Virus record (IMG/VR): IMGVR_UViG_3300040985_002201
Span: 1 to 41,419 of that record
Strand: one strand, 5' to 3'
DNA length: 41,419 nucleotides
Source of the DNA: a virus
Taxonomy: Duplodnaviria; Caudoviricetes
The position numbers and the translations under genes were made by a program. A model generated the notes under the pieces. The model made no database searches, was not told where the DNA came from, and was given only the letters and a program-made list of their open reading frames with translations. Below are positions 660 to 41,419 of the stretch, one piece after another (position 1 is the stretch's first letter; the number at the start of each line of letters is the position of its first letter).

Positions 660-1130
660 GTGAGCGAACTTCCGTCAACCGAACAATCCCTCATCCAACC
701 AGTGGAGCAATCGGATGTTGCTGCGTACTGGATGAAGGCAGCGGTGAGCACAGAGGCTTTGGTGGCCCGTGCGTTTGAAGAGTCGGATGGCGACTTGGTT
801 TCATTGCACAAGAGCCTTCGGGCAGTTCAGACTTATGTTGGCATCCGCAAGTCGATTGGTGAGATGGTAGAGAAGGCGAGCTCCTTTTCCACAGATTCGA
901 CTTGGGATCCATTCGCCCCTGACGCCCTGGACGAGAAGTTGGACATCAGTGCGGCCAAGGCGGAGTTTGAATCGTCGGCCTCATTGGATGCGTCGGTTGA
1001 GTTGTACAAAGCTGGGTTGAGTTACAAAGAGATTATCGACAAGACGGGGTTGTCTCGCCGGCAGGTTGAGAAGGCTATAAAAAAAGCGGGTGTTCGTCGC
1101 CGCAGAAAGACGCTTGAAATTGTTGGGTAG
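660..1130 (+). CDS. Putative terminase small subunit / HTH protein
   Basis: Lies directly upstream of terL and has a C-terminal HTH (LYKAGLSYKEIIDKTGLSRRQVEKAI) with a basic tail. Start codon uncertain. Confidence 0.55.
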   Translation: MSELPSTEQSLIQPVEQSDVAAYWMKAAVSTEALVARAFEESDGDLVSLHKSLRAVQTYVGIRKSIGEMVEKASSFSTDSTWDPFAPDALDEKLDISAAKAEFESSASLDASVELYKAGLSYKEIIDKTGLSRRQVEKAIKKAGVRRRRKTLEIVG

Positions 1131-1142
1131 TGCGCCTATGCT
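1114..1142 (+). promoter_or_regulatory. Sigma70-like promoter
   Basis: TTGAAA (1114-1119), 17 bp spacer, TATGCT (1137-1142). Confidence 0.55.
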
Positions 1143-1148
1143 TGGCTG

Positions 1149-1247
1149 GGTAGCTCCTATGGTTCATTCCTCTGTACCATACGGTGAACAAGTTCCCCCC
1201 TTGTGCCGCCCACGGTTTCTCCTTTGTTCCCGTGGGCGGCACATCCT
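1149..1247 (+). ncRNA. Candidate structured RNA or leader with anti-Shine-Dalgarno loops
   Basis: Hairpin TATGGT/ACCATA (1158-1181, loop TCATTCCTCTGT) and a perfect 14-bp hairpin (1202-1243, loop TTTCTCCTTTGTTC), downstream of the predicted promoter. Confidence 0.5.
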
Positions 1248-3020
1248 ATGTCAAAAGTAAGAAAGTTCTGGGAGCGTTGCCGTGTAGACCGGCGTTTTTA
1301 TTTCCAGAACTGTTTACGCATACGCACGATGGTCGATGGCAAGTACAAATTGACGCCATTGGTTTTGAACGCAGAGCAGGAACAGATTCTCAACGCGATA
1401 GAGGAGCAGGAGCAATCTGGGTCTCCGGTACGTTTGATTATCCTCAAGTCAAGGAAGGTCGGTTGTTCGACTTTGATTGAGGCCTTGGGTCAGCACTACT
1501 GCCAGTTCTCCCAGCACGCCAATGCGAAGTGCATCGCTCACCTGAAGGATTCGACCAAAGAGATTTTCGGCATTGCGAAACGCTATCAACAGAACCTTCC
1601 AGATTTCTTTGACGAGTTGGCCCCTGCTCGAGTTGTGGGTCATTCAATCCAGTGGGAGCATGGGTCACGCTTTTCAATCCAGACTCAGGGTGCGACTGAT
1701 GCGGCCCGTGGTTCGACGCCTGACTTTCTCCATCTTTCTGAGTTAGCGCTTTGGTGGAAGAACCGTCGTGCCAGTAGTGACGAGGATGTGTTGCAGTCGC
1801 AGTTGGGTTCTTTGGAAGACAAGTTTGGAACGACCTGTATTATTGAGTCCACAGCTCATGGTGCTGCGGGTGCTTTTTACAATCGTTTCTGGCAAGCCTG
1901 GAAGAACGAGCCTGGTAATATATTCAAGGCATTGTTTTTTGGTTGGCAGGAGCACGCTCATTACCGCTTGCCGCTTCAGAGTGGTGACAAGAAGTTGCGT
2001 GAGCGTCTTCTCAAGGCACATGAGGCAGAAGAGGCAGAGTTTTTCTACGAGCTCGCTTCTCAGCAGGGTTGGGATGTGTTTTGGGCAGACCGGATGGTTG
2101 AGTTTGATTTGGAGCCTTGCCAGATACGTTGGGCGTTGCAGACGCTTCGTACCAAATTCGGTGGAGATCTTGTTCGCTTTGACACGGAATATCCACTGTC
2201 ACCTCAGATAGCTTTCACCTCTAGCGCACGAAGCCCATTCGACCAGGTTGCTGTTGAAGAGATATCTCGCGACTTGATGGATAATCCACCTCCATGTTCA
2301 AAGGGTGAGCTTCTCCAAGACCACATGTCACTGGTGCCGGGTGCTGATGATTGGCGGATTTGGCATCGACCTGACCCCACACGTGAGTACCTTATAACTA
2401 TAGACTCGGCACACGGGGTGGAGGATGGCGACTTCTCTTGCATTCAAGTACTGGATAGAACCGAGCGAGTGCAGGTTGCTGAATATTATGCTCGCCAGCC
2501 GCCAGATATCACTGCACGTCAAGCCGTTGTTGCAGGCCGAGCATATAACAATGCACTTATCGTCCCTGAGATTGATGGGCCGGGTCTCGCCGTTGTCCGA
2601 GAATTGCTTGACGTGGATGGAGGAGGTGGATACCCGAATCTCTATGTCCGTTCGACTTCCGGTAACTGGACTCAGCGCTTTGGTTTTAGGACGCAGGGTA
2701 AGGGGCAGAGAGAGGCTGCGATTGCGGCACTCGGTAAAGCCATACGTTTGAAGACCTGGACATTCAACTCATTGCGGTTGATGGGTGAGTGTAAGACCTT
2801 TATTGAGAACATGCGTGGTCGAGCGGAAGCGATGCCGGGGGCGCATGATGATGCAGTTATGTCGATGGCGATTGGATTGTACCTTGACTCTGAGCTGGAT
2901 GATGCGTCATATTCGGAGCCAAGTGGAAAAAAGGTAGATCTCCCAAGGGATTCGGTGGCTAATTTCCTAAACGTGGCTGCTGATGTTGATAGAGATCCAC
3001 ACCTGGGGACGGTTTGGTAG
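1248..3020 (+). CDS. terL: Terminase large subunit
   Basis: Walker A-like LKSRKVGCST, Walker B DFLHLSE, coupling motif IIESTAHG, RNase H-fold acidic motifs TIDSAHG and HDDAVMS. ATG 1248 preferred because GTG 1203 lies in a hairpin stem. Confidence 0.95.
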   Translation: MSKVRKFWERCRVDRRFYFQNCLRIRTMVDGKYKLTPLVLNAEQEQILNAIEEQEQSGSPVRLIILKSRKVGCSTLIEALGQHYCQFSQHANAKCIAHLKDSTKEIFGIAKRYQQNLPDFFDELAPARVVGHSIQWEHGSRFSIQTQGATDAARGSTPDFLHLSELALWWKNRRASSDEDVLQSQLGSLEDKFGTTCIIESTAHGAAGAFYNRFWQAWKNEPGNIFKALFFGWQEHAHYRLPLQSGDKKLRERLLKAHEAEEAEFFYELASQQGWDVFWADRMVEFDLEPCQIRWALQTLRTKFGGDLVRFDTEYPLSPQIAFTSSARSPFDQVAVEEISRDLMDNPPPCSKGELLQDHMSLVPGADDWRIWHRPDPTREYLITIDSAHGVEDGDFSCIQVLDRTERVQVAEYYARQPPDITARQAVVAGRAYNNALIVPEIDGPGLAVVRELLDVDGGGGYPNLYVRSTSGNWTQRFGFRTQGKGQREAAIAALGKAIRLKTWTFNSLRLMGECKTFIENMRGRAEAMPGAHDDAVMSMAIGLYLDSELDDASYSEPSGKKVDLPRDSVANFLNVAADVDRDPHLGTVW

Positions 3021-14273: not shown

Positions 14274-15647
14274 ATGTCAAAGTATCAAGTACCAAAGGAT
14301 AGCCGGGGCTATAAGAACCCACGCGCAGAAAACCCAAACAGCGCAATGAAGCGACCAACGGCACCCGTTCAACGGGGTGGCCTGATGGATACTGCCGCTC
14401 GAGCTCGAGCACTCAAGCCGGGGATCCCCCCAATACCGACACTCCAACCACCAGAGATTGCCGCTGCCCCAGAACCCGCACAGGAGCGTCAGCAACCAGC
14501 GATGCGACCACCAGCGACCCCGATTAACATTCACGTGGGGGCGCCGCAAGTAGAGCCTAGAGCCGAGGCTGCAAAGGCATTGGCTAAGAAAGAGGAAGTG
14601 ACCTACGGAGCGCCGGAAGGTGGCTGGGAGTCAATGGGTTACTTATCCGATATGCAGGCAGTCGGAGGGGGTGGTGCTGGGGAACCGGCAGATGCCGAGG
14701 AACCAGCGACCGAGGAACCAGCGACCGAGGAAGGGGCTTACCCAGGTGGAAAGACAAAGGAAGAGTGGGAAGCTGTCATTGCAAAGGCGGCTGAGAGTGG
14801 CGAAGAGTGGGACCTGGCCTACGCGGCAAATCAACTGGAGGATGGCAAAGACATAACACCAGAGCAAGAGGCACTTCTTGTAAAGTATGGATTCCATAGC
14901 GATTCCCCTGAGATTGCCGATGCCAAAGATGCCGTTACTTCAGCCAAGGAAATTGTTGAGCCGTGGCTGTACGAATACATGTCATCCGACTTAGGCATAT
15001 CGGAAACTGATATATCAAACCAGGTTGAGCAACTGAAGATGGCGAGCTCAGAAGAGATTGCGAAGTTCGCGCAACAGATGGCATCACGCGGCATGGGCGC
15101 GAGCGGTCTGGTTGGCGCCGGCATGGGTCAAATCCAGTCATCGACGATGGCAGCGATGGCTAATGTGCGCTTTGAAGCCGCAAAACTCGCTGTTGAGGAC
15201 AGACTGAATAGGCTCAAGAGTTACCTCGCGACGTATGGCAACATGATTTCAACAGAAGCTCAACTTGCGATGCAGGGTGAAATAAACAAATTGGCTAATG
15301 ACCAGTTTGATTACCAACAACAGCAAGACAGAGTTGCAGACCAGTGGCAGTCAGTTGCAAACTGGGCAGCAGCACACGGCGCAAAGGGTTATACTGGCGG
15401 AACTCTCGACAAAGTGTGGGACAAGATGCACTCCATCAACCCGCAGACGGGCGAGTACTACACGTGGGATGAGATTTCCCAGAGCCTGGGAACATTGGTG
15501 AAAGTGGTGGACGGGGTGAATGTTATCTATGCAACATGGCGAGTGGGAAATCAGCCAGCGGAAATTATAGACACAGTCTACTACGGGGGAGAGCTTCAAG
15601 GGTGGCACACTCCTGACAAGGCTTTTGTTAAGTACATAAAGGAGTAG
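14274..15647 (+). CDS. Putative internal virion (ejection) protein
   Basis: QQMASRGMGASGL motif followed by Gln/Ala helices, typical of podovirus ejection proteins; Pro-rich N-terminus. Confidence 0.6.
   Translation: MSKYQVPKDSRGYKNPRAENPNSAMKRPTAPVQRGGLMDTAARARALKPGIPPIPTLQPPEIAAAPEPAQERQQPAMRPPATPINIHVGAPQVEPRAEAAKALAKKEEVTYGAPEGGWESMGYLSDMQAVGGGGAGEPADAEEPATEEPATEEGAYPGGKTKEEWEAVIAKAAESGEEWDLAYAANQLEDGKDITPEQEALLVKYGFHSDSPEIADAKDAVTSAKEIVEPWLYEYMSSDLGISETDISNQVEQLKMASSEEIAKFAQQMASRGMGASGLVGAGMGQIQSSTMAAMANVRFEAAKLAVEDRLNRLKSYLATYGNMISTEAQLAMQGEINKLANDQFDYQQQQDRVADQWQSVANWAAAHGAKGYTGGTLDKVWDKMHSINPQTGEYYTWDEISQSLGTLVKVVDGVNVIYATWRVGNQPAEIIDTVYYGGELQGWHTPDKAFVKYIKE
14695..14732 (+). repeat. 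15-bp in-frame tandem repeat, about 2.5 copies (EEPAT)
   Basis: CCGAGGAACCAGCGA twice, then CCGAGGAA. Confidence 0.85.
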
Positions 15648-35223: not shown

Positions 35224-35929
35224 TGTTTCCCTCAAGTGCAGATTCAAATGCTGCGTAATTTAGTTGTAATTTTCCTGGCAAACGACCTGTACGGTCCTTC
35301 GCCGTGTAACGGTCACTCTTGTCAGTAAGAATGATGCGTTCATTGTTATGGACAGTGAGAAATAAAATAATATCGCTCATCCCAGTGACGATTTCACTCG
35401 CCTTACCCGTCAGGGTCGAGCGCCATTGACTGACCTTGCCAACACGGGTATCGACCTCAACTTCCTTTGCATGCGTTACAAAGACCAGCCCCATGGGTAG
35501 ACCTTTGTTTGTCCGTAGCAATGGAAGCAATGACAACACTCGACGGAAGTCACTGTTGATAATGCCAAAACCCCTACCATACTTACCGTTCTCGCTGGCA
35601 TGCTGAACACCTTCACCATCGTTTGCTAGTGAGTTGTGGTGGTTCACACAATGCAGGTATAAGATGTCAATTGTATCAATAACCAAGGTCTCGATGTGCT
35701 TGGGACTCTTTGCAAGCTCCTGACAAAGCGCCACAAACTTACCCCAAGAAGTGACTGAAGTCTGGTAGACCTCAAGAAAATTCAAACCGGGTTCAGTGGC
35801 CGCGAACAGCGCGTTCGGGAACTGACTGGCAAAGGTAGACTTACCAATACCTGGTTCGCCAATGATTGTAATGACTTGGGCAGATGCCGCGTCAATCACT
35901 GGACTTTTATTCTCTGGAATCATACTCAC
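35216..35929 (-). CDS. AAA-family ATPase, Sak4-like recombinase
   Basis: GEPGIGKST Walker A, LVIDTID Walker B, AKDR C-terminal motif; located between exonuclease and SSB. Confidence 0.85.
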   Translation of the reverse strand: MSMIPENKSPVIDAASAQVITIIGEPGIGKSTFASQFPNALFAATEPGLNFLEVYQTSVTSWGKFVALCQELAKSPKHIETLVIDTIDILYLHCVNHHNSLANDGEGVQHASENGKYGRGFGIINSDFRRVLSLLPLLRTNKGLPMGLVFVTHAKEVEVDTRVGKVSQWRSTLTGKASEIVTGMSDIILFLTVHNNERIILTDKSDRYTAKDRTGRLPGKLQLNYAAFESALEGNNE

Positions 35930-36912
35930 TACACTTTCTCCTCTGTTTTGGTTGAAATATCCTCAAACACTCGCTTACGCTTCTTAAATAGCGTCTGCAA
36001 AATGACTTCATCGCTGCCGGCGGAGCAGTATGGGCTAAACTCACACATGCGGTTAAAACTGCTGCAACTACCCAAGCTTCGCGGCCACTTGCTCCTTGCC
36101 TCAGTGGCTACGTACTCATCCATAATCTCATCCAGGTCCTTATCCAGCTCCGCGATTTGAGCCGGGGTATGGACAATCACCTCACACCTAAATGAATCGA
36201 ACGACTTCTCTCTGTACATACGCATCAGACGGTCATGGTATGAACCGGCAATCTCATCGTACTCCCGCTGACCGGCATAGAGCTCGACAACGCCATCTTT
36301 GGTCGCTTTCTTATAGCGCCGCTTATGCTCTGGAGTTGCCAGTTGCCTCTTGAGCGTGGGCTTTCTTATAACGTCGTAGATGATGCCAGCGATAGGAATG
36401 CCTAAGCGGGTCAACGCCCAGTTATAGAGCAACCCTTGGCGCGTAGACCACAGACGGCTGCAGAAGCGGTCTAAGGTATCGCTGGTGGTCTTATTCTCCA
36501 GAATGAAGATACGACCACTTCTATCGCGGGCCAACGCATCAACAATGCCGCCAAAGAAATAATCTGTGTGCATGTTGGATGTGTGCTTGGTCAAAAACTC
36601 TTTCTCGACCTCAATGATTTCATACTCTTCATAGAACTCACGAGTAAAGGTCCGCCAGGACTCAACCATCGCAGCTACCTTGATTTGGTTGTCTGCATCC
36701 AGACCAACCTTGGAAGCGTCAACAGCTACCTTCAGGCTCTCACCATCGCGTAACTTCTCAATACCTGTATGGAACGCTGAGCCAATGGCAAAGTACTCAG
36801 GCTTCTCTATCTGCTCCAAGCTCCTGTTGTTTCGTAAGTCATACTTCCGCTTACAACTTTGGAACGTTCCAATCCCTCCGTTTGAAATAACTACCTGTCG
36901 TCTGTCAGCCAA
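35929..36912 (-). CDS. Cas4/AddB-like PD-(D/E)XK exonuclease
   Basis: QSCKRKY, GSAFH, GIVDAL...ENKTT and a C-terminal Cys cluster (C..C..C). TTG 36912 with GGAGG is the preferred start. Confidence 0.85.
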   Translation of the reverse strand: MADRRQVVISNGGIGTFQSCKRKYDLRNNRSLEQIEKPEYFAIGSAFHTGIEKLRDGESLKVAVDASKVGLDADNQIKVAAMVESWRTFTREFYEEYEIIEVEKEFLTKHTSNMHTDYFFGGIVDALARDRSGRIFILENKTTSDTLDRFCSRLWSTRQGLLYNWALTRLGIPIAGIIYDVIRKPTLKRQLATPEHKRRYKKATKDGVVELYAGQREYDEIAGSYHDRLMRMYREKSFDSFRCEVIVHTPAQIAELDKDLDEIMDEYVATEARSKWPRSLGSCSSFNRMCEFSPYCSAGSDEVILQTLFKKRKRVFEDISTKTEEKV

Positions 36913-37402: not shown

Positions 37403-37429
37403 CAATAAATTCTTGCGGGTCTACTAGGC

Positions 37430-37597
37430 TCATAAGTTGCAGAGCTCGCTGTGGTATTCGCGCTTACCTGATTCCCATTTGGATGAGCAGAATTGACAAG
37501 TCTCAGCCTTGAGCTCCAGCTTCTCAGCCTTATCCCATTGGCCTTTGACCTTGGCTCTTAGAATTGCCGCTTCTAACGGACTGGTATTTCTGTTCAT
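37430..37597 (-). CDS. 55-aa protein with CxxC...H...C (not in the ORF track)
   Basis: MNRNTSPLEAAILRAK...CQFC...HSELCNL; AGAGGA RBS; stop lies at the edge of the repeat. Confidence 0.7.
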   Translation of the reverse strand: MNRNTSPLEAAILRAKVKGQWDKAEKLELKAETCQFCSSKWESGKREYHSELCNL

Positions 37598-37700
37598 GGT
37601 TTCCTCTGTTTTCGTGCGGGCTTACTAGGCTCACAGTAAATTCACAATAACATACTGACACACACAACACCTACAAAAAAACACGGTGTGTGCGGGACTA

Positions 37701-37868
37701 CTAGGCTCGTTTGTATTCGACTATCACCTTGCCGGCGGTAACCGTATCTTTTAGCAGCACTGCGAGCTCATAGGCTGACCTATCAGCTGCGCCTTTACAG
37801 TCATCTGCATTCCTGGGTTTATAAATACGTGGCGGGTTAAAATTTAAATCGTGGATTATTATTTCCAT
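37701..37868 (-). CDS. 55-aa hypothetical protein
   Basis: MEIIIHDLNFNPP...; AGAGGA RBS; TAG stop supplied by the repeat. Confidence 0.7.
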   Translation of the reverse strand: MEIIIHDLNFNPPRIYKPRNADDCKGAADRSAYELAVLLKDTVTAGKVIVEYKRA

Positions 37869-37906
37869 TTTCAATTCCTCTGTTTTTCTGTGCGGGACTA
37901 CTAGGC

Positions 37907-38308
37907 TCACTTATTATTTATTTCAGCTGTTGGAATGGTTTTTACAACGCCAAAGAGCTTGTAGGTTATGGTTTTTGTTCTCATTAAATAAACCGGGACA
38001 AGGAACAAAATCGGGACTAAACAACCTAAAGCAATTCCAATTAGAGAGGAATTCGGGTCCACGCATGCCGCAATACCATCCGTAATTGTGTTGATAGCCA
38101 TGCTTAAGCCACATGCAATGTAATGTGGTGAAATATTAAGCATTGCTAGTTTATCACCTAGAAATCCTTCAGGGTCTAAACCTTCCAGCATAAGCCATAG
38201 CATGGGCGCATTGTCAAAGAGCCCAAAGTCAAAATTGAGAATGTGGCGACACATTAAGTGTGCGATATAAGTTAAAATTGCGAGCGTTATACGTTGTTTA
38301 TTATTCAT
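37907..38308 (-). CDS. Membrane protein, TMEM65-like
   Basis: FGLFDNAPM ... INTITDGIA ... GIALGCLV motifs in hydrophobic helices. Confidence 0.6.
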   Translation of the reverse strand: MNNKQRITLAILTYIAHLMCRHILNFDFGLFDNAPMLWLMLEGLDPEGFLGDKLAMLNISPHYIACGLSMAINTITDGIAACVDPNSSLIGIALGCLVPILFLVPVYLMRTKTITYKLFGVVKTIPTAEINNK

Positions 38309-38344
38309 TTTGTTTTCCTCTGTTTTTCTGTGCGGGACTACTAA

Positions 38345-38497
38345 TCAATCGGATGTTAAATTGTGGTGATAGTCTTCAAATGCTTCTTTTTTCAACTCTT
38401 CACAATTGCAAATTGCCTCATCATTTTCATGAACGTTGCACCTTGGATTGTGTTCTGTGTCGTCTGGTTCAAAATAGCTAGTGAATGGTGAGCTCAT
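38345..38497 (-). CDS. 50-aa acidic Cys/His protein (not in the ORF track)
   Basis: MSSPFTSYFEPDDTEHNPRCNVHENDEAICNCEELKKEAFEDYHHNLTSD; GGAGG RBS. Confidence 0.7.
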   Translation of the reverse strand: MSSPFTSYFEPDDTEHNPRCNVHENDEAICNCEELKKEAFEDYHHNLTSD

Positions 38498-38498
38498 C

Positions 38499-38600
38499 TT
38501 AAACCTCCGTTTTCAAAAAAGTGCTTTCAACCAGGATAACCTGGACAGCTATAAAAAATGCCAGAGCCGGCGGACCTAATACGATTAAACCAATTATCAT
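38499..38600 (-). CDS. 33-aa single-TM peptide (not in the ORF track)
   Basis: MIIGLIVLGPPALAFFIAVQVILVESTFLKTEV; AGAGGA RBS. Confidence 0.65.
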   Translation of the reverse strand: MIIGLIVLGPPALAFFIAVQVILVESTFLKTEV

Positions 38601-38665
38601 TTTGTTTCCTCTGTTTTTCCTGTGCGGGCCTACTAGGCTCTTGAGCTGTTCGGCCATTTTTTTTG

Positions 38666-38750
38666 TCAAAAATCTTCAAAAATTCTCAAAAATTCTCAAA
38701 AATTCTCAGAAATTTGTGCCATATATGGCACCATATATGGCACAAATTTC
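38666..38750. repeat. Five 10-bp tandem A-tract repeats plus a 20-bp perfect inverted repeat
   Basis: TCAAAAATTC-like x5 (38666-38715); GAAATTTGTGCCATATATGG-CA-CCATATATGGCACAAATTTC (38709-38750). Confidence 0.9.
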
Positions 38751-39007: not shown

Positions 39008-39033
39008 AATTTTACCTCTGTTTTCATTGGAAC

Positions 39034-39487: not shown

Positions 39488-39512
39488 TTTGTTTTCCTTT
39501 GTTTTTATTGGG

Positions 39513-39573
39513 GCTTAAGCGCTCCATAGGTGCATTGACCGCTGACAGTCAATGCACCTAGCAATGCTTAAGC
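39513..39573 (-). other. Intergenic RNA stem-loop with internal loop (copy A)
   Basis: GCTTAAGC-ATTGC-TAGGTGCATTGAC-8 nt-GTCAATGCACCTA-TGGAGC-GCTTAAGC on the - strand. Confidence 0.7.
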
Positions 39574-40434
39574 GTATAGTCCTTTGATTTGTCCTTTTTC
39601 GTTTTTCAATACTTCACCACGCCGCGCCGCCGCACGTTTACGGCTTGAATCCCCGCTAGCGTGACGTGGAACAACGCGCCAATTTTTGGAACTGGCACCC
39701 GTGCAAGCCATGGGACAACCAGCGCAACCAATTAAGAAACCACGTTTCAATTCGAATTCTTTTGACTTGGGACACAACGCGGCGCCCGTCGGAATCTCTT
39801 CACCAATTGCGTCAATGACCTGATAAACATTCCAACCTTTTGACAGTGCAAGTAATGCTTGTTCTTTACTGTCGCAACTTGCTACGTGTGTTTTTTGCAA
39901 GTGAGTTGCGCTGTGGTCGTGGGTATATCCTAACCATTGTTTGGCTGGATAGACTTTGCAAATTGAGCTTTCAATTTCAGACCATACCGCAGCGGGAATC
40001 ATACTTGCGTCGCCCGCTACCATTGAACGAACCTTGGCAATCCCTGCTAATTTCGCGCACTTCAAAAGATAGCGCAGTTCTGATAAATACAATCCGTCAT
40101 TCGTAACGGCTTCACAATTTCGAATGATGCGGGCAACTTGTGACGCGTTGCGCGGATTGTGTTGTACATAGCAACGCTTGCCAGCCATGACAAAAGCACA
40201 CGTTGACGGGCAAACACTTTCTATTTCACTGCGTAGCGCTTTTACATATGGGACACCTTGCCATGCTGGTTTAACTCCCGCCGTCAATTCTGCCCATTGT
40301 TCAATGATGAAAGTTGGAACGAGGGTTAATTCTACCACTTGCCCCGTCGCTTTATTGCCGCCAATACTGGCAATAAGTGAAACGGGTTTATTGGATGTGG
40401 AAAGGCCTTTCCATATTACGATTGAAATATTCAT
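39568..40434 (-). CDS. Cys-rich phage protein, probable Fe-S binding (DUF7227-like)
   Basis: NKATG, CPSTC..CY, VR...GD, GYTH, ASCDS...GW, CP...CAGC...C...H pattern; AAAGGAG RBS. Confidence 0.6.
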   Translation of the reverse strand: MNISIVIWKGLSTSNKPVSLIASIGGNKATGQVVELTLVPTFIIEQWAELTAGVKPAWQGVPYVKALRSEIESVCPSTCAFVMAGKRCYVQHNPRNASQVARIIRNCEAVTNDGLYLSELRYLLKCAKLAGIAKVRSMVAGDASMIPAAVWSEIESSICKVYPAKQWLGYTHDHSATHLQKTHVASCDSKEQALLALSKGWNVYQVIDAIGEEIPTGAALCPKSKEFELKRGFLIGCAGCPMACTGASSKNWRVVPRHASGDSSRKRAAARRGEVLKNEKGQIKGLYA

Positions 40435-40667
40435 TAGTTGGACTCCTTTGATTGTGTGAGTTGTTCAAGGATAAAATTCTTTGCATCTTCCCGTGTGGAG
40501 TGGCGGGATACGACTTGATAAACGTTTTCCCAATATCCAAATCCGGTACACTTGACGCACCAGTCAAATGCCTCATATTTTATGGTCCAGTATTGTCTGC
40601 CTACCGGCAGCGCCAGATGTGAATGATTGCGGGAGTCTTCCCATAGTCCGTCTGATAAATTGTTCAT
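40434..40667 (-). CDS. Hypothetical protein
   Basis: MNNLSDGLWED...; GGGAG RBS before ATG 40667; TAATG coupling to the next gene. Confidence 0.65.
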   Translation of the reverse strand: MNNLSDGLWEDSRNHSHLALPVGRQYWTIKYEAFDWCVKCTGFGYWENVYQVVSRHSTREDAKNFILEQLTQSKESN

Positions 40668-40671
40668 TGGT

Positions 40672-40896
40672 TTACCACTCCCCATAAAGGCGGACACCTT
40701 TTTGTAGTTCAATTGTGCTGCTGCTGAATCCGTGTTGACCTTCGACAACACACCACACGTCAAGTAAATAACCGTCAGCGTTGAGTTCATTCTCAATTTC
40801 AATCTTTGTTTTCATTTCTTTGATTCCGGCCATGAATTTGACTGGATGAAGTAGAAGCGCTTTCACTGTGATTGCGTCTTTTATGATGTGGTGCAT
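40672..40896 (-). CDS. Hypothetical protein, first gene of the leftward operon
   Basis: 74 aa ORF downstream of a strong promoter candidate; AAGGGA RBS. Confidence 0.65.
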   Translation of the reverse strand: MHHIIKDAITVKALLLHPVKFMAGIKEMKTKIEIENELNADGYLLDVWCVVEGQHGFSSSTIELQKGVRLYGEW

Positions 40897-40925
40897 TTCT
40901 CAATCCCTTGTTTTGGTTACTCCTA

Positions 40926-41321: not shown

Positions 41322-41419
41322 CCTCCCCCCCGCTCCCCTTTGGGAGCTATCCCCCCATGGGGGGGAGACACCATTGCGAAGCGATGGTGTCTATAGAAAG
41401 ACCCGGGGTACGTAGTACC
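41322..41419. repeat. 98-bp terminal direct repeat, right copy
   Basis: Identical to 3-100. Confidence 0.95.

Follow-up and report, generated by a model that had tools for sequence, protein, structure and literature searches.

Switches between gene classes in phages are mostly attributed to proteins, i.e., sigma factors, antiterminators and translational repressors. The stretch of viral DNA analysed here (41,419 nucleotides, hereafter the window) raises the question of whether an RNA could take such a part. A reading of the sequence alone had proposed a candidate late plus-strand RNA, located between what are here a gene for a helix-turn-helix (HTH) protein and the gene for the terminase large subunit (terL), whose hairpin loops are antisense to the ribosome-binding sites (RBSs) of the phage's own early genes and which would shut off early translation when the packaging operon turns on. 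The antisense pairing in this proposal gained computed support from the strand-specific distribution of wobble pairs, the fold, the conservation of the promoter, the complementarity itself, a pairing preference for early over late genes and the co-change of loops (seeds) and RBSs among relatives. We consider it probable, at roughly 60%, that the RNA pairs in trans over the Shine-Dalgarno (SD) sequences of early and replication mRNAs, in one clade also over the AUG, and blocks initiation.

Genomic context of the locus

The window carries an exact 98-nt end repeat (3-100 and 41322-41419), so that the record probably corresponds to a complete circle despite an estimated completeness of 75%. Its plus-strand arm comprises the HTH gene (660-1130), terL (from 1248), portal, capsid, tail and lysis genes and a primase; the minus-strand arm extends from small early cassette genes (40896 downwards) to an exonuclease, a Sak4-like protein, a single-stranded DNA-binding protein (SSB), a methyltransferase and a resolvase. 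Genes are called early or late here from gene content and strand. The phage family is uncultured and marine, with TARA ocean scaffolds among the related contigs. No close cultured relative was found (best phage match 28%), no relatives were found in genome_contigs, and tyrosine integrases and serine recombinases are absent from all four records searched, one of them 100% complete. Two genes frame the locus:

660..1130, plus strand: helical protein with a C-terminal HTH (Pfam HTH_23/28, below cut-off)
1248..3020, plus strand: terminase large subunit, terL (phrog_2, E 4e-16), without SD

Its position makes the product of the first gene a candidate small terminase subunit, the other possibility being a late regulator. 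Fold searches returned weak HTH matches only (model pTM 0.40), and no significant family or fold match identified this protein upstream of the element as a Q-type antiterminator. A minus-strand gene at 220-678 (likely start 642), ribbon-helix-helix-like by eye, lies head to head with the HTH gene, their starts being less than 20 bp apart, and this arrangement recurs in relatives.

A conserved structured element between the HTH gene and terL

In scans of 16, 26 and 73 terL loci, partly overlapping, the element was found upstream of terL in four clades of the terL tree:

Clade A: the window, L001, L002/L057, L069, L036 and L038
Clade B: L019, L039, L041 and L042
Clade C: L024, L055, L075, L005, L007 and others
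Clade D: L008-L010, L012, L023 and L051

In the window, it is composed of the following parts:

1114..1142, plus strand: likely sigma70-type promoter (-35 TTGAAA, 17-nt spacer, -10 TATGCT at 1137-1142), supported by conservation
1149..1250, plus strand: predicted small RNA or leader of about 100 nt, its 5' end placed from the promoter
1158..1181, plus strand: hairpin 1 (stem 1158-1163/1176-1181, loop 1164-1175, seed UUCCUCUGU at 1167-1175)
1202..1243, plus strand: hairpin 2 (perfect 14-bp stem 1202-1215/1230-1243, loop 1216-1229, seed UUUCUCCUUUGUU)

The promoter-like site, the two hairpins and all loop/RBS matches of the sequence-only reading were recovered where it had located them. The -35 hexamer (1114) falls within the last codons of the HTH gene. 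Taken in the window alone, the proposed sigma70-like promoter is a 9/12 match of a kind found at chance level (5 found versus 2.1 expected), but it is conserved in relatives, and its support comes from there. In clade A, TA...T stands 17 nt from a 5/6 match to the -35 in all six sequences; more widely, 28 of 31 sequences have a TAnnnT hexamer 87-134 nt upstream of terL, the T, A and T being the only invariant positions of the -10, and an extended -10 (TGn) is seen in most sequences of the distant clades C and D. This promoter has the look of a host sigma70 type and could be active as soon as infection begins.

The fold of the element is non-random (z -5.1, 0/200 shuffles). Two-sided changes affect 9 of 21 pairs in the six clade-A sequences, four of the changed pairs lying in the stem of hairpin 1, and 5 of 12 pairs in clade C. 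The loop motif TCCTYTGT is kept in loop 1 of 6/6 and in loop 2 of 5/6 clade-A sequences. The minus strand of the element also folds (z -3.7); in the hairpin-2 stems of 31 related sequences, however, a strand-neutral hairpin finder, giving G-T and A-C the same score, counted 62 G-T versus 3 A-C on the plus strand. The folded RNA is therefore the plus strand, which excludes the minus-strand CsrA-type sponge with GGA loops that had been held out as the alternative.

No conserved open reading frame exists on either strand among eight sequences. An in-frame GTG at 1203 and a minus-strand ORF of 55 aa were rejected as coding candidates since neither is conserved, and read-through of the HTH gene into terL was rejected on account of two in-frame stops and of frames that differ in relatives. 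Rfam gave no match at gathering score for the window and six relative loci, and none at E<=10 between 900 and 1500; a ylbH hit (E=0.44) was discarded as far below its cut-off. The element is conserved and probably functional, likely a small-RNA gene with a likely promoter of its own: the predicted promoter, the conserved structure and the non-coding sequence are those of trans-encoded sRNAs. Its last hairpin is plausibly a leaky terminator, given a variably U-rich tail (T at 4 of the 8 positions after the last stem in the window, 1-7 in 24 sequences, 7 in L010).

Built from clade A, a covariance model recovers the clade-B elements in the same position and orientation (E about 0.008) and fails to reach clades C and D, apart from one partial match, so that the homology of these two clades rests on position, promoter and architecture. 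In L023, the element still follows the HTH gene and two genes are inserted before terL. An HTH-type gene directly abuts terL, with no gap between them, in L006, L064 and L068, where the element must be dispensable or located elsewhere. Close to the early region of L006 (1780-1840 and 3421), GGAGTAAC/TACTCC hairpins recur, possibly a relocated element. Viral scans with Sak4, with the 39568-40434 protein and with the cassette repeat described below yielded no further relatives with early genes, and a search for the two-loop pattern returned L001, L002 and two chance matches (L111, L112).

Predicted pairing with early RBSs in the window

Pairing was scored over 47 start regions as ungapped duplex energy plus opening cost, with our own ViennaRNA script rather than IntaRNA; all energies are predictions in kcal/mol. 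The early sites concerned are:

35935..35947, minus strand: RBS of the Sak4-like gene (start 35929); loop 2, 13 bp with one G-U, -13.2 net
37412..38640, minus strand: six-copy 20-nt cassette repeat carrying four of the ACAGAGGAA sites (repeats D2-D5)
37601..37609, minus strand: RBS ACAGAGGAA, gene start 37597; predicted target of loop 1
37874..37883, minus strand: RBS ACAGAGGAAU, gene start 37868; predicted target of loop 1
38315..38323, minus strand: RBS ACAGAGGAA, gene start 38308; predicted target of loop 1
38606..38614, minus strand: RBS ACAGAGGAA, gene start 38600; predicted target of loop 1
39015..39021, minus strand: RBS ACAGAGG, gene start 39007; weak predicted target (-4.2), absent from the sequence-only reading
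39495..39503, minus strand: RBS AACAAAGGA, gene start 39487; predicted target of loop 2, 9 nt
40443..40450, minus strand: RBS CAAAGGAG, gene start 40434; weak predicted target of loop 2, 8 nt, -5.0
40904..40912, minus strand: RBS AACAAGGGA, gene start 40896 (first early gene); loop 2 with one G-U, a weaker predicted target

The loop-1 9-mer TTCCTCTGT occurs at 1167 and, as had been claimed, at 37601, 37875, 38315 and 38606, and nowhere on the other strand; the proposed loop-2 duplexes of 13 nt (one G-U), 9 nt and 8 nt with 35935-35947, 39495-39503 and 40443-40450 likewise hold. The best predicted target, which also ranks first for loop 2 over both strands of the genome, is the RBS of the gene starting at 35929; previously labelled an AAA-ATPase, this gene encodes an annealing protein similar to Sak4 (phrog_124). 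Being copies of a single repeat, the four 9-mer sites should be counted as one event. The standardised early RBS that the sequence-only reading had hoped to explain by the RNA is, in the window, partly a repeat. The cassette repeat itself (TGTGCGGGACTACTAGGCTC) is found between early cassette genes, flanked on the minus strand by the preceding stop codon and the ACAGAGGAA RBS; it has no exact match in viral_contigs and is possibly a gene-shuffling or regulatory junction. Elsewhere in the early region, beside short tandem repeats, two perfectly matching 20-bp arms separated by 2 nt form an inverted repeat (38709-38750).

The early-over-late preference expected from the sequence-only reading was observed: cassette genes reach a median of -6.1 (n=10) versus -1.9 for late genes (n=26; p=0.003), and remain better once the repeat copies are collapsed (p=0.005). 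Loop 1 beats all 150 shuffles that keep its UCCU core and loop 2 beats 143 of 150. Cassette genes are preferred by loop 1 (p=0.0003) and not by a generic anti-SD oligo (p=0.15); the same oligo separates all minus-strand starts from late starts (p=0.03), so that part of the early-over-late gap is generic. Of the 14 best genome-wide sites for loop 1, among which the element itself appears, five are early RBSs. The net energies computed for the window are modest: 7 of its 20 early starts reach <= -6, two late starts come out at -8.1 and -7.4, and the comparison of early genes with nine automatically called late genes gives p=0.12. Departures from seed/RBS complementarity favour G-U over A-C (38:9, about 64:36 being expected from the seed make-up), a weak signal, SDs being G-rich.

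Two further candidate contacts were rejected. The linker CCCCCCUUGU had been suggested as a third seed through its CCCTTGT match to the first early RBS; this match exists, but the linker does not favour early sites (p=0.88) and is not conserved, and loop 2 is the better partner for the gene at 40896. An 11-nt match between the RNA 5' end and the late gene at 14274 was set aside, the 5' end not being conserved.

Co-change of seeds and early RBSs among relatives

The search for loop/early-RBS covariation in related phages was positive in L038, L036 and clade D. The loop/early-RBS pairs are UCCUCUGU/ACAGAGGA in the window, which carries both loop types, and AUCCUUUGU/ACAAAGGAU in L038. Within 30 nt of early starts, ACAGAGGA is found at 5/20 and ACAAAGGA at 1/20 in the window, versus 0/6 and 4/6 in L038, where loop 1 is AUCCUUUGU; the terL genes of the two phages are 84% identical, and the phages differ at the same two positions in seed and RBS. 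Both loops of L036 are UCCUCUGU(UU); at L036:20-45, one early RBS carries three tandem AAACAGAGG, the complement of these loops. In clade D, the RNA has one hairpin and an unpaired 5' seed, GUCAUUCUUCC(UU), predicted to cover both SD and AUG; this seed reaches <= -5 kcal/mol at 11/17 early starts of L023 (six of them at -12 to -15), 10/17 of L009 and 2/5 of L008. The linker or loop 1 serves as seed in clades B and C. For the invariant clade-C loop CCCUGUA, the 10 kb available for L024 contain no early site that matches exactly.

These pairings were compared in a cross matrix of 13 RNAs and 13 early-gene sets, several of which comprise only 3-7 genes with starts called automatically in the relatives. 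For ten phages, own pairing beats 100,000 of 100,000 label permutations; this ten-phage test leaves out L006, which lacks the element there, L040 and L009 as near duplicates, and L008, and takes L023 instead of L010. Subsets give p=0.0002 for seven phages and p=0.0014 for six well-separated ones, versus p=0.08 for own pairing with late-gene sets (nine phages). Across 12 phages, 73 of 155 early and 6 of 89 late starts are at <= -6. At this threshold, RNAs reach 77/162 own early starts (47.5%), 186/407 of the same clade (45.7%) and 422/1537 of other clades (27.5%). The advantage of own pairing is thus largely common within clades, and the permutation p-values overstate independence.

Among disjoint sister pairs of the terL tree, 5/5 lean the expected way and one is significant alone; of four alternative sister pairs, one is significant and L023/L008 goes in the wrong direction. 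Switches within clades are seen for L036/L038 (p=0.013) and L024/L005 (p=0.002). Altogether, there are about 4-6 independent seed/RBS matches, i.e., about four at the clade level plus the within-clade switches. Eight held-out, distal early-strand ORFs of G007 (about four credible genes) show no preference for their own RNA (-4.3 versus -6.0 for the RNA of L019). In G004, a late-strand primase-like gene (L115:3076-5391) has an RBS, GGAGAAUGAC, that matches the seed of its own phage (-8.7) and is the sole one of 14 late-strand genes below -6, suggesting that the regulon may follow function, not strand.

A likely cis role at the terL start

The sequence-only reading had omitted that the last hairpin also blocks the start of terL. 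Hairpin 2 ends 4 nt before the terL AUG, and opening this start in the window costs 25.6 kcal/mol, versus 6.8-21.9 for 26 other plus-strand genes. Throughout clades A-C, terL has no SD and its start costs 23-27 kcal/mol to open; in clade D, the start is mostly open (10.6-18.5). The last hairpin of the window occludes the terL start, so that a cis role besides the trans role is likely. The clade-C start codon is itself part of hairpin 2, as ATG or, in 2/11 loci, as GTG with a compensating change. In the same clade, at L024:9890-9990 and ten other loci, cis pairing may occur between the loop CCCTGTA and (T)ACAGGGG in the 5' arm of hairpin 1, with 90% of cells paired and no two-sided change, a possible switch or pseudoknot.

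Proposed mechanism and alternative explanations

The reading that we favour would operate as follows. The stretch between the HTH gene and terL would give, from a promoter of its own, an RNA of about 100 nt that accumulates as the packaging arm is transcribed; the unpaired pyrimidine-rich loops of this RNA would pair in trans with extended SD regions of the oppositely transcribed early and replication mRNAs, likely blocking ribosome loading and so damping early and replication proteins. Late genes would be spared, many of them overlapping the preceding stop and having RBSs that match the loops poorly. In addition, the last hairpin likely works in cis, slowing terL translation and acting as a leaky terminator. 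That the RNA is made, pairs with its targets in the cell and represses them, and when it does so, is what we infer here from the computed patterns. A bolder version is more tentative than the pairing itself: a single RNA would constitute the early-to-late switch, with the leader as trans repressor, a co-evolving RBS 'barcode' through which early and replication genes belong to its regulon, a hairpin that meters terminase, a seed that moved at least three times between loops, linker and 5' end, and variants that may be immunity groups for relatives infecting together.

The same pairing could serve another end if the RNA were made from the start of infection, or in a carrier state, and silenced the early genes of a resident or incoming related phage by c4-like immunity, the seed/RBS variants being immunity groups. 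A promoter resembling a plain host promoter would suit this role, as would the fast seed/RBS co-change in close relatives, which recalls the change of c4 specificity between P1 and P7 (PMC5320573). We nevertheless find it improbable, in view of the four records free of integrase and recombinase genes, of the failure to find relatives in genome_contigs and of the position of the RNA at the head of the packaging arm. An equally small chance is given to a function in cis only, i.e., a terL 5' leader keeping terminase low as an attenuator or translational brake, the anti-SD loops serving folding or ribosome avoidance. The SD-less terL with its costly start in clades A-C fits well, and so do the clade-C start codon within hairpin 2 and the possible pairing of a hairpin 1 arm with loop 2; such a leader leaves the loop/RBS co-change in L038, L036 and clade D unexplained, however, and the mostly open clade-D start, together with the separation of element and terL in L023, indicates that control of terL is not the sole function.

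Still less credible is a broad anti-SD RNA aimed mainly at host mRNAs, with early RBSs that match it by copying the strong RBS style of the host. Every seed does contain a CCU/CCUC core, and 27% of early starts remain within reach (<= -6) of RNAs from other clades, yet a generic anti-SD does not pick out the cassette genes, and such an RNA hardly accounts for phages with 84% identical terL that differ at the same two seed and RBS positions. Finally, the motif might be a protein-binding site, either a minus-strand RNA decoy of the CsrA/RegA type or a repeated one-strand DNA operator. This accords with the folding of the minus strand and its GGA loops, with the presence of every copy on the same DNA strand and with a motif spacing of 50-52 bp in five sequences; the wobble pairs fit the plus strand only, the promoter points the same way, the excess of G-U among seed/RBS departures argues weakly in this direction too, and the clade-D seed is single-stranded outside any loop, so that we regard this as very improbable.

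Comparison with known regulatory RNAs

A close parallel to the preferred trans-acting RNA is c4 of phages P1 and P7, a three-stem RNA cut by RNase P, which controls an antirepressor locus and maintains lysogeny (PMC5320573). What the two have in common, here by computational prediction and for c4 from PMC5320573, is a phage RNA within a longer transcript, two exposed loops complementary to own mRNA at the RBS, and a few covarying bases that set phage specificity. Unlike c4, the present RNA has two hairpins and many scattered predicted targets, no integrase was found, and the element lies between the HTH gene and terL rather than in a lysogeny or immunity region, a plasmid-like state being possible; Rfam C4 covariance models gave no match at gathering score in the window or six relative loci.

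Staphylococcal RsaE and RNAIII likewise have unpaired anti-SD motifs that are predicted to pair over the RBSs of many mRNAs, and pairing of RsaE over SD and AUG blocks 30S loading (PMC2790875). According to the same source, they are chromosomal, use a UCCC motif and act on host targets (PMC2790875); the RNA proposed here is phage-encoded, has a seed UCCUYUGU that extends beyond the SD and predicted targets among its own genes, and shows no Rfam relation to them. StxS/lambda 6S (PMC7547250) and IsrK (PMC4825925) resemble the RNA as it is proposed here: they are short RNAs from a phage operon-head promoter with a leaky terminator and a second trans role, and a gene for a DNA-binding protein immediately precedes them. 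StxS acts on stx1 and host rpoS (PMC7547250) and IsrK activates its own read-through mRNA (PMC4825925); these two sources do not describe either as a repressor of early genes, and no counterpart of the Q-type antiterminator was identified here.

P22 sar, lambda OOP and aQ are also phage RNAs that repress phage genes by pairing, as is predicted here; they are encoded opposite a single target with full complementarity (PMC12197685), unlike the short seeds and the distant, multiple predicted targets of the present RNA. CsrB/RsmZ sponges differ in that the GGA loops are here on the minus strand, whereas wobble pairs and promoter point to the plus strand. On the target side, the SAS motif of cluster K mycobacteriophages is a standardised extended RBS in one orientation before non-structural genes, for which an RNA or protein partner was left open and single opposite-strand copies were noted (PMC3203893). 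The sequence and the phages are different, and no partner RNA is identified for SAS (PMC3203893); the present RNA would be a partner of the sort considered there. The accessible part of a 2025 review of phage sRNAs mentions no RNA acting on the phage's own early class (PMC12197685), and the literature titles surveyed, a set that excludes subscription papers, name no phage sRNA repressing its own early class via shared RBSs; an unnamed listing in a catalogue of viral structured RNAs is possible (PMC10690425). An RBS-blocking phage sRNA that turns down its own early and replication genes is thus likely to be a variant not previously described.

Implications

The locus supplies natural orthogonal seed/RBS pairs and leads to an allele-specific prediction: the L038 RNA should act on ACAAAGGA and not on ACAGAGGA, the L036 RNA the reverse, and the L023 RNA only on GGAGGAGUGAUG-type starts. 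If the favoured reading is true, a small RNA that reads the standardised RBS of a whole early regulon would represent a simple RNA-only switch, and would offer a candidate answer to the purpose of standardised phage RBS motifs such as SAS (PMC3203893).
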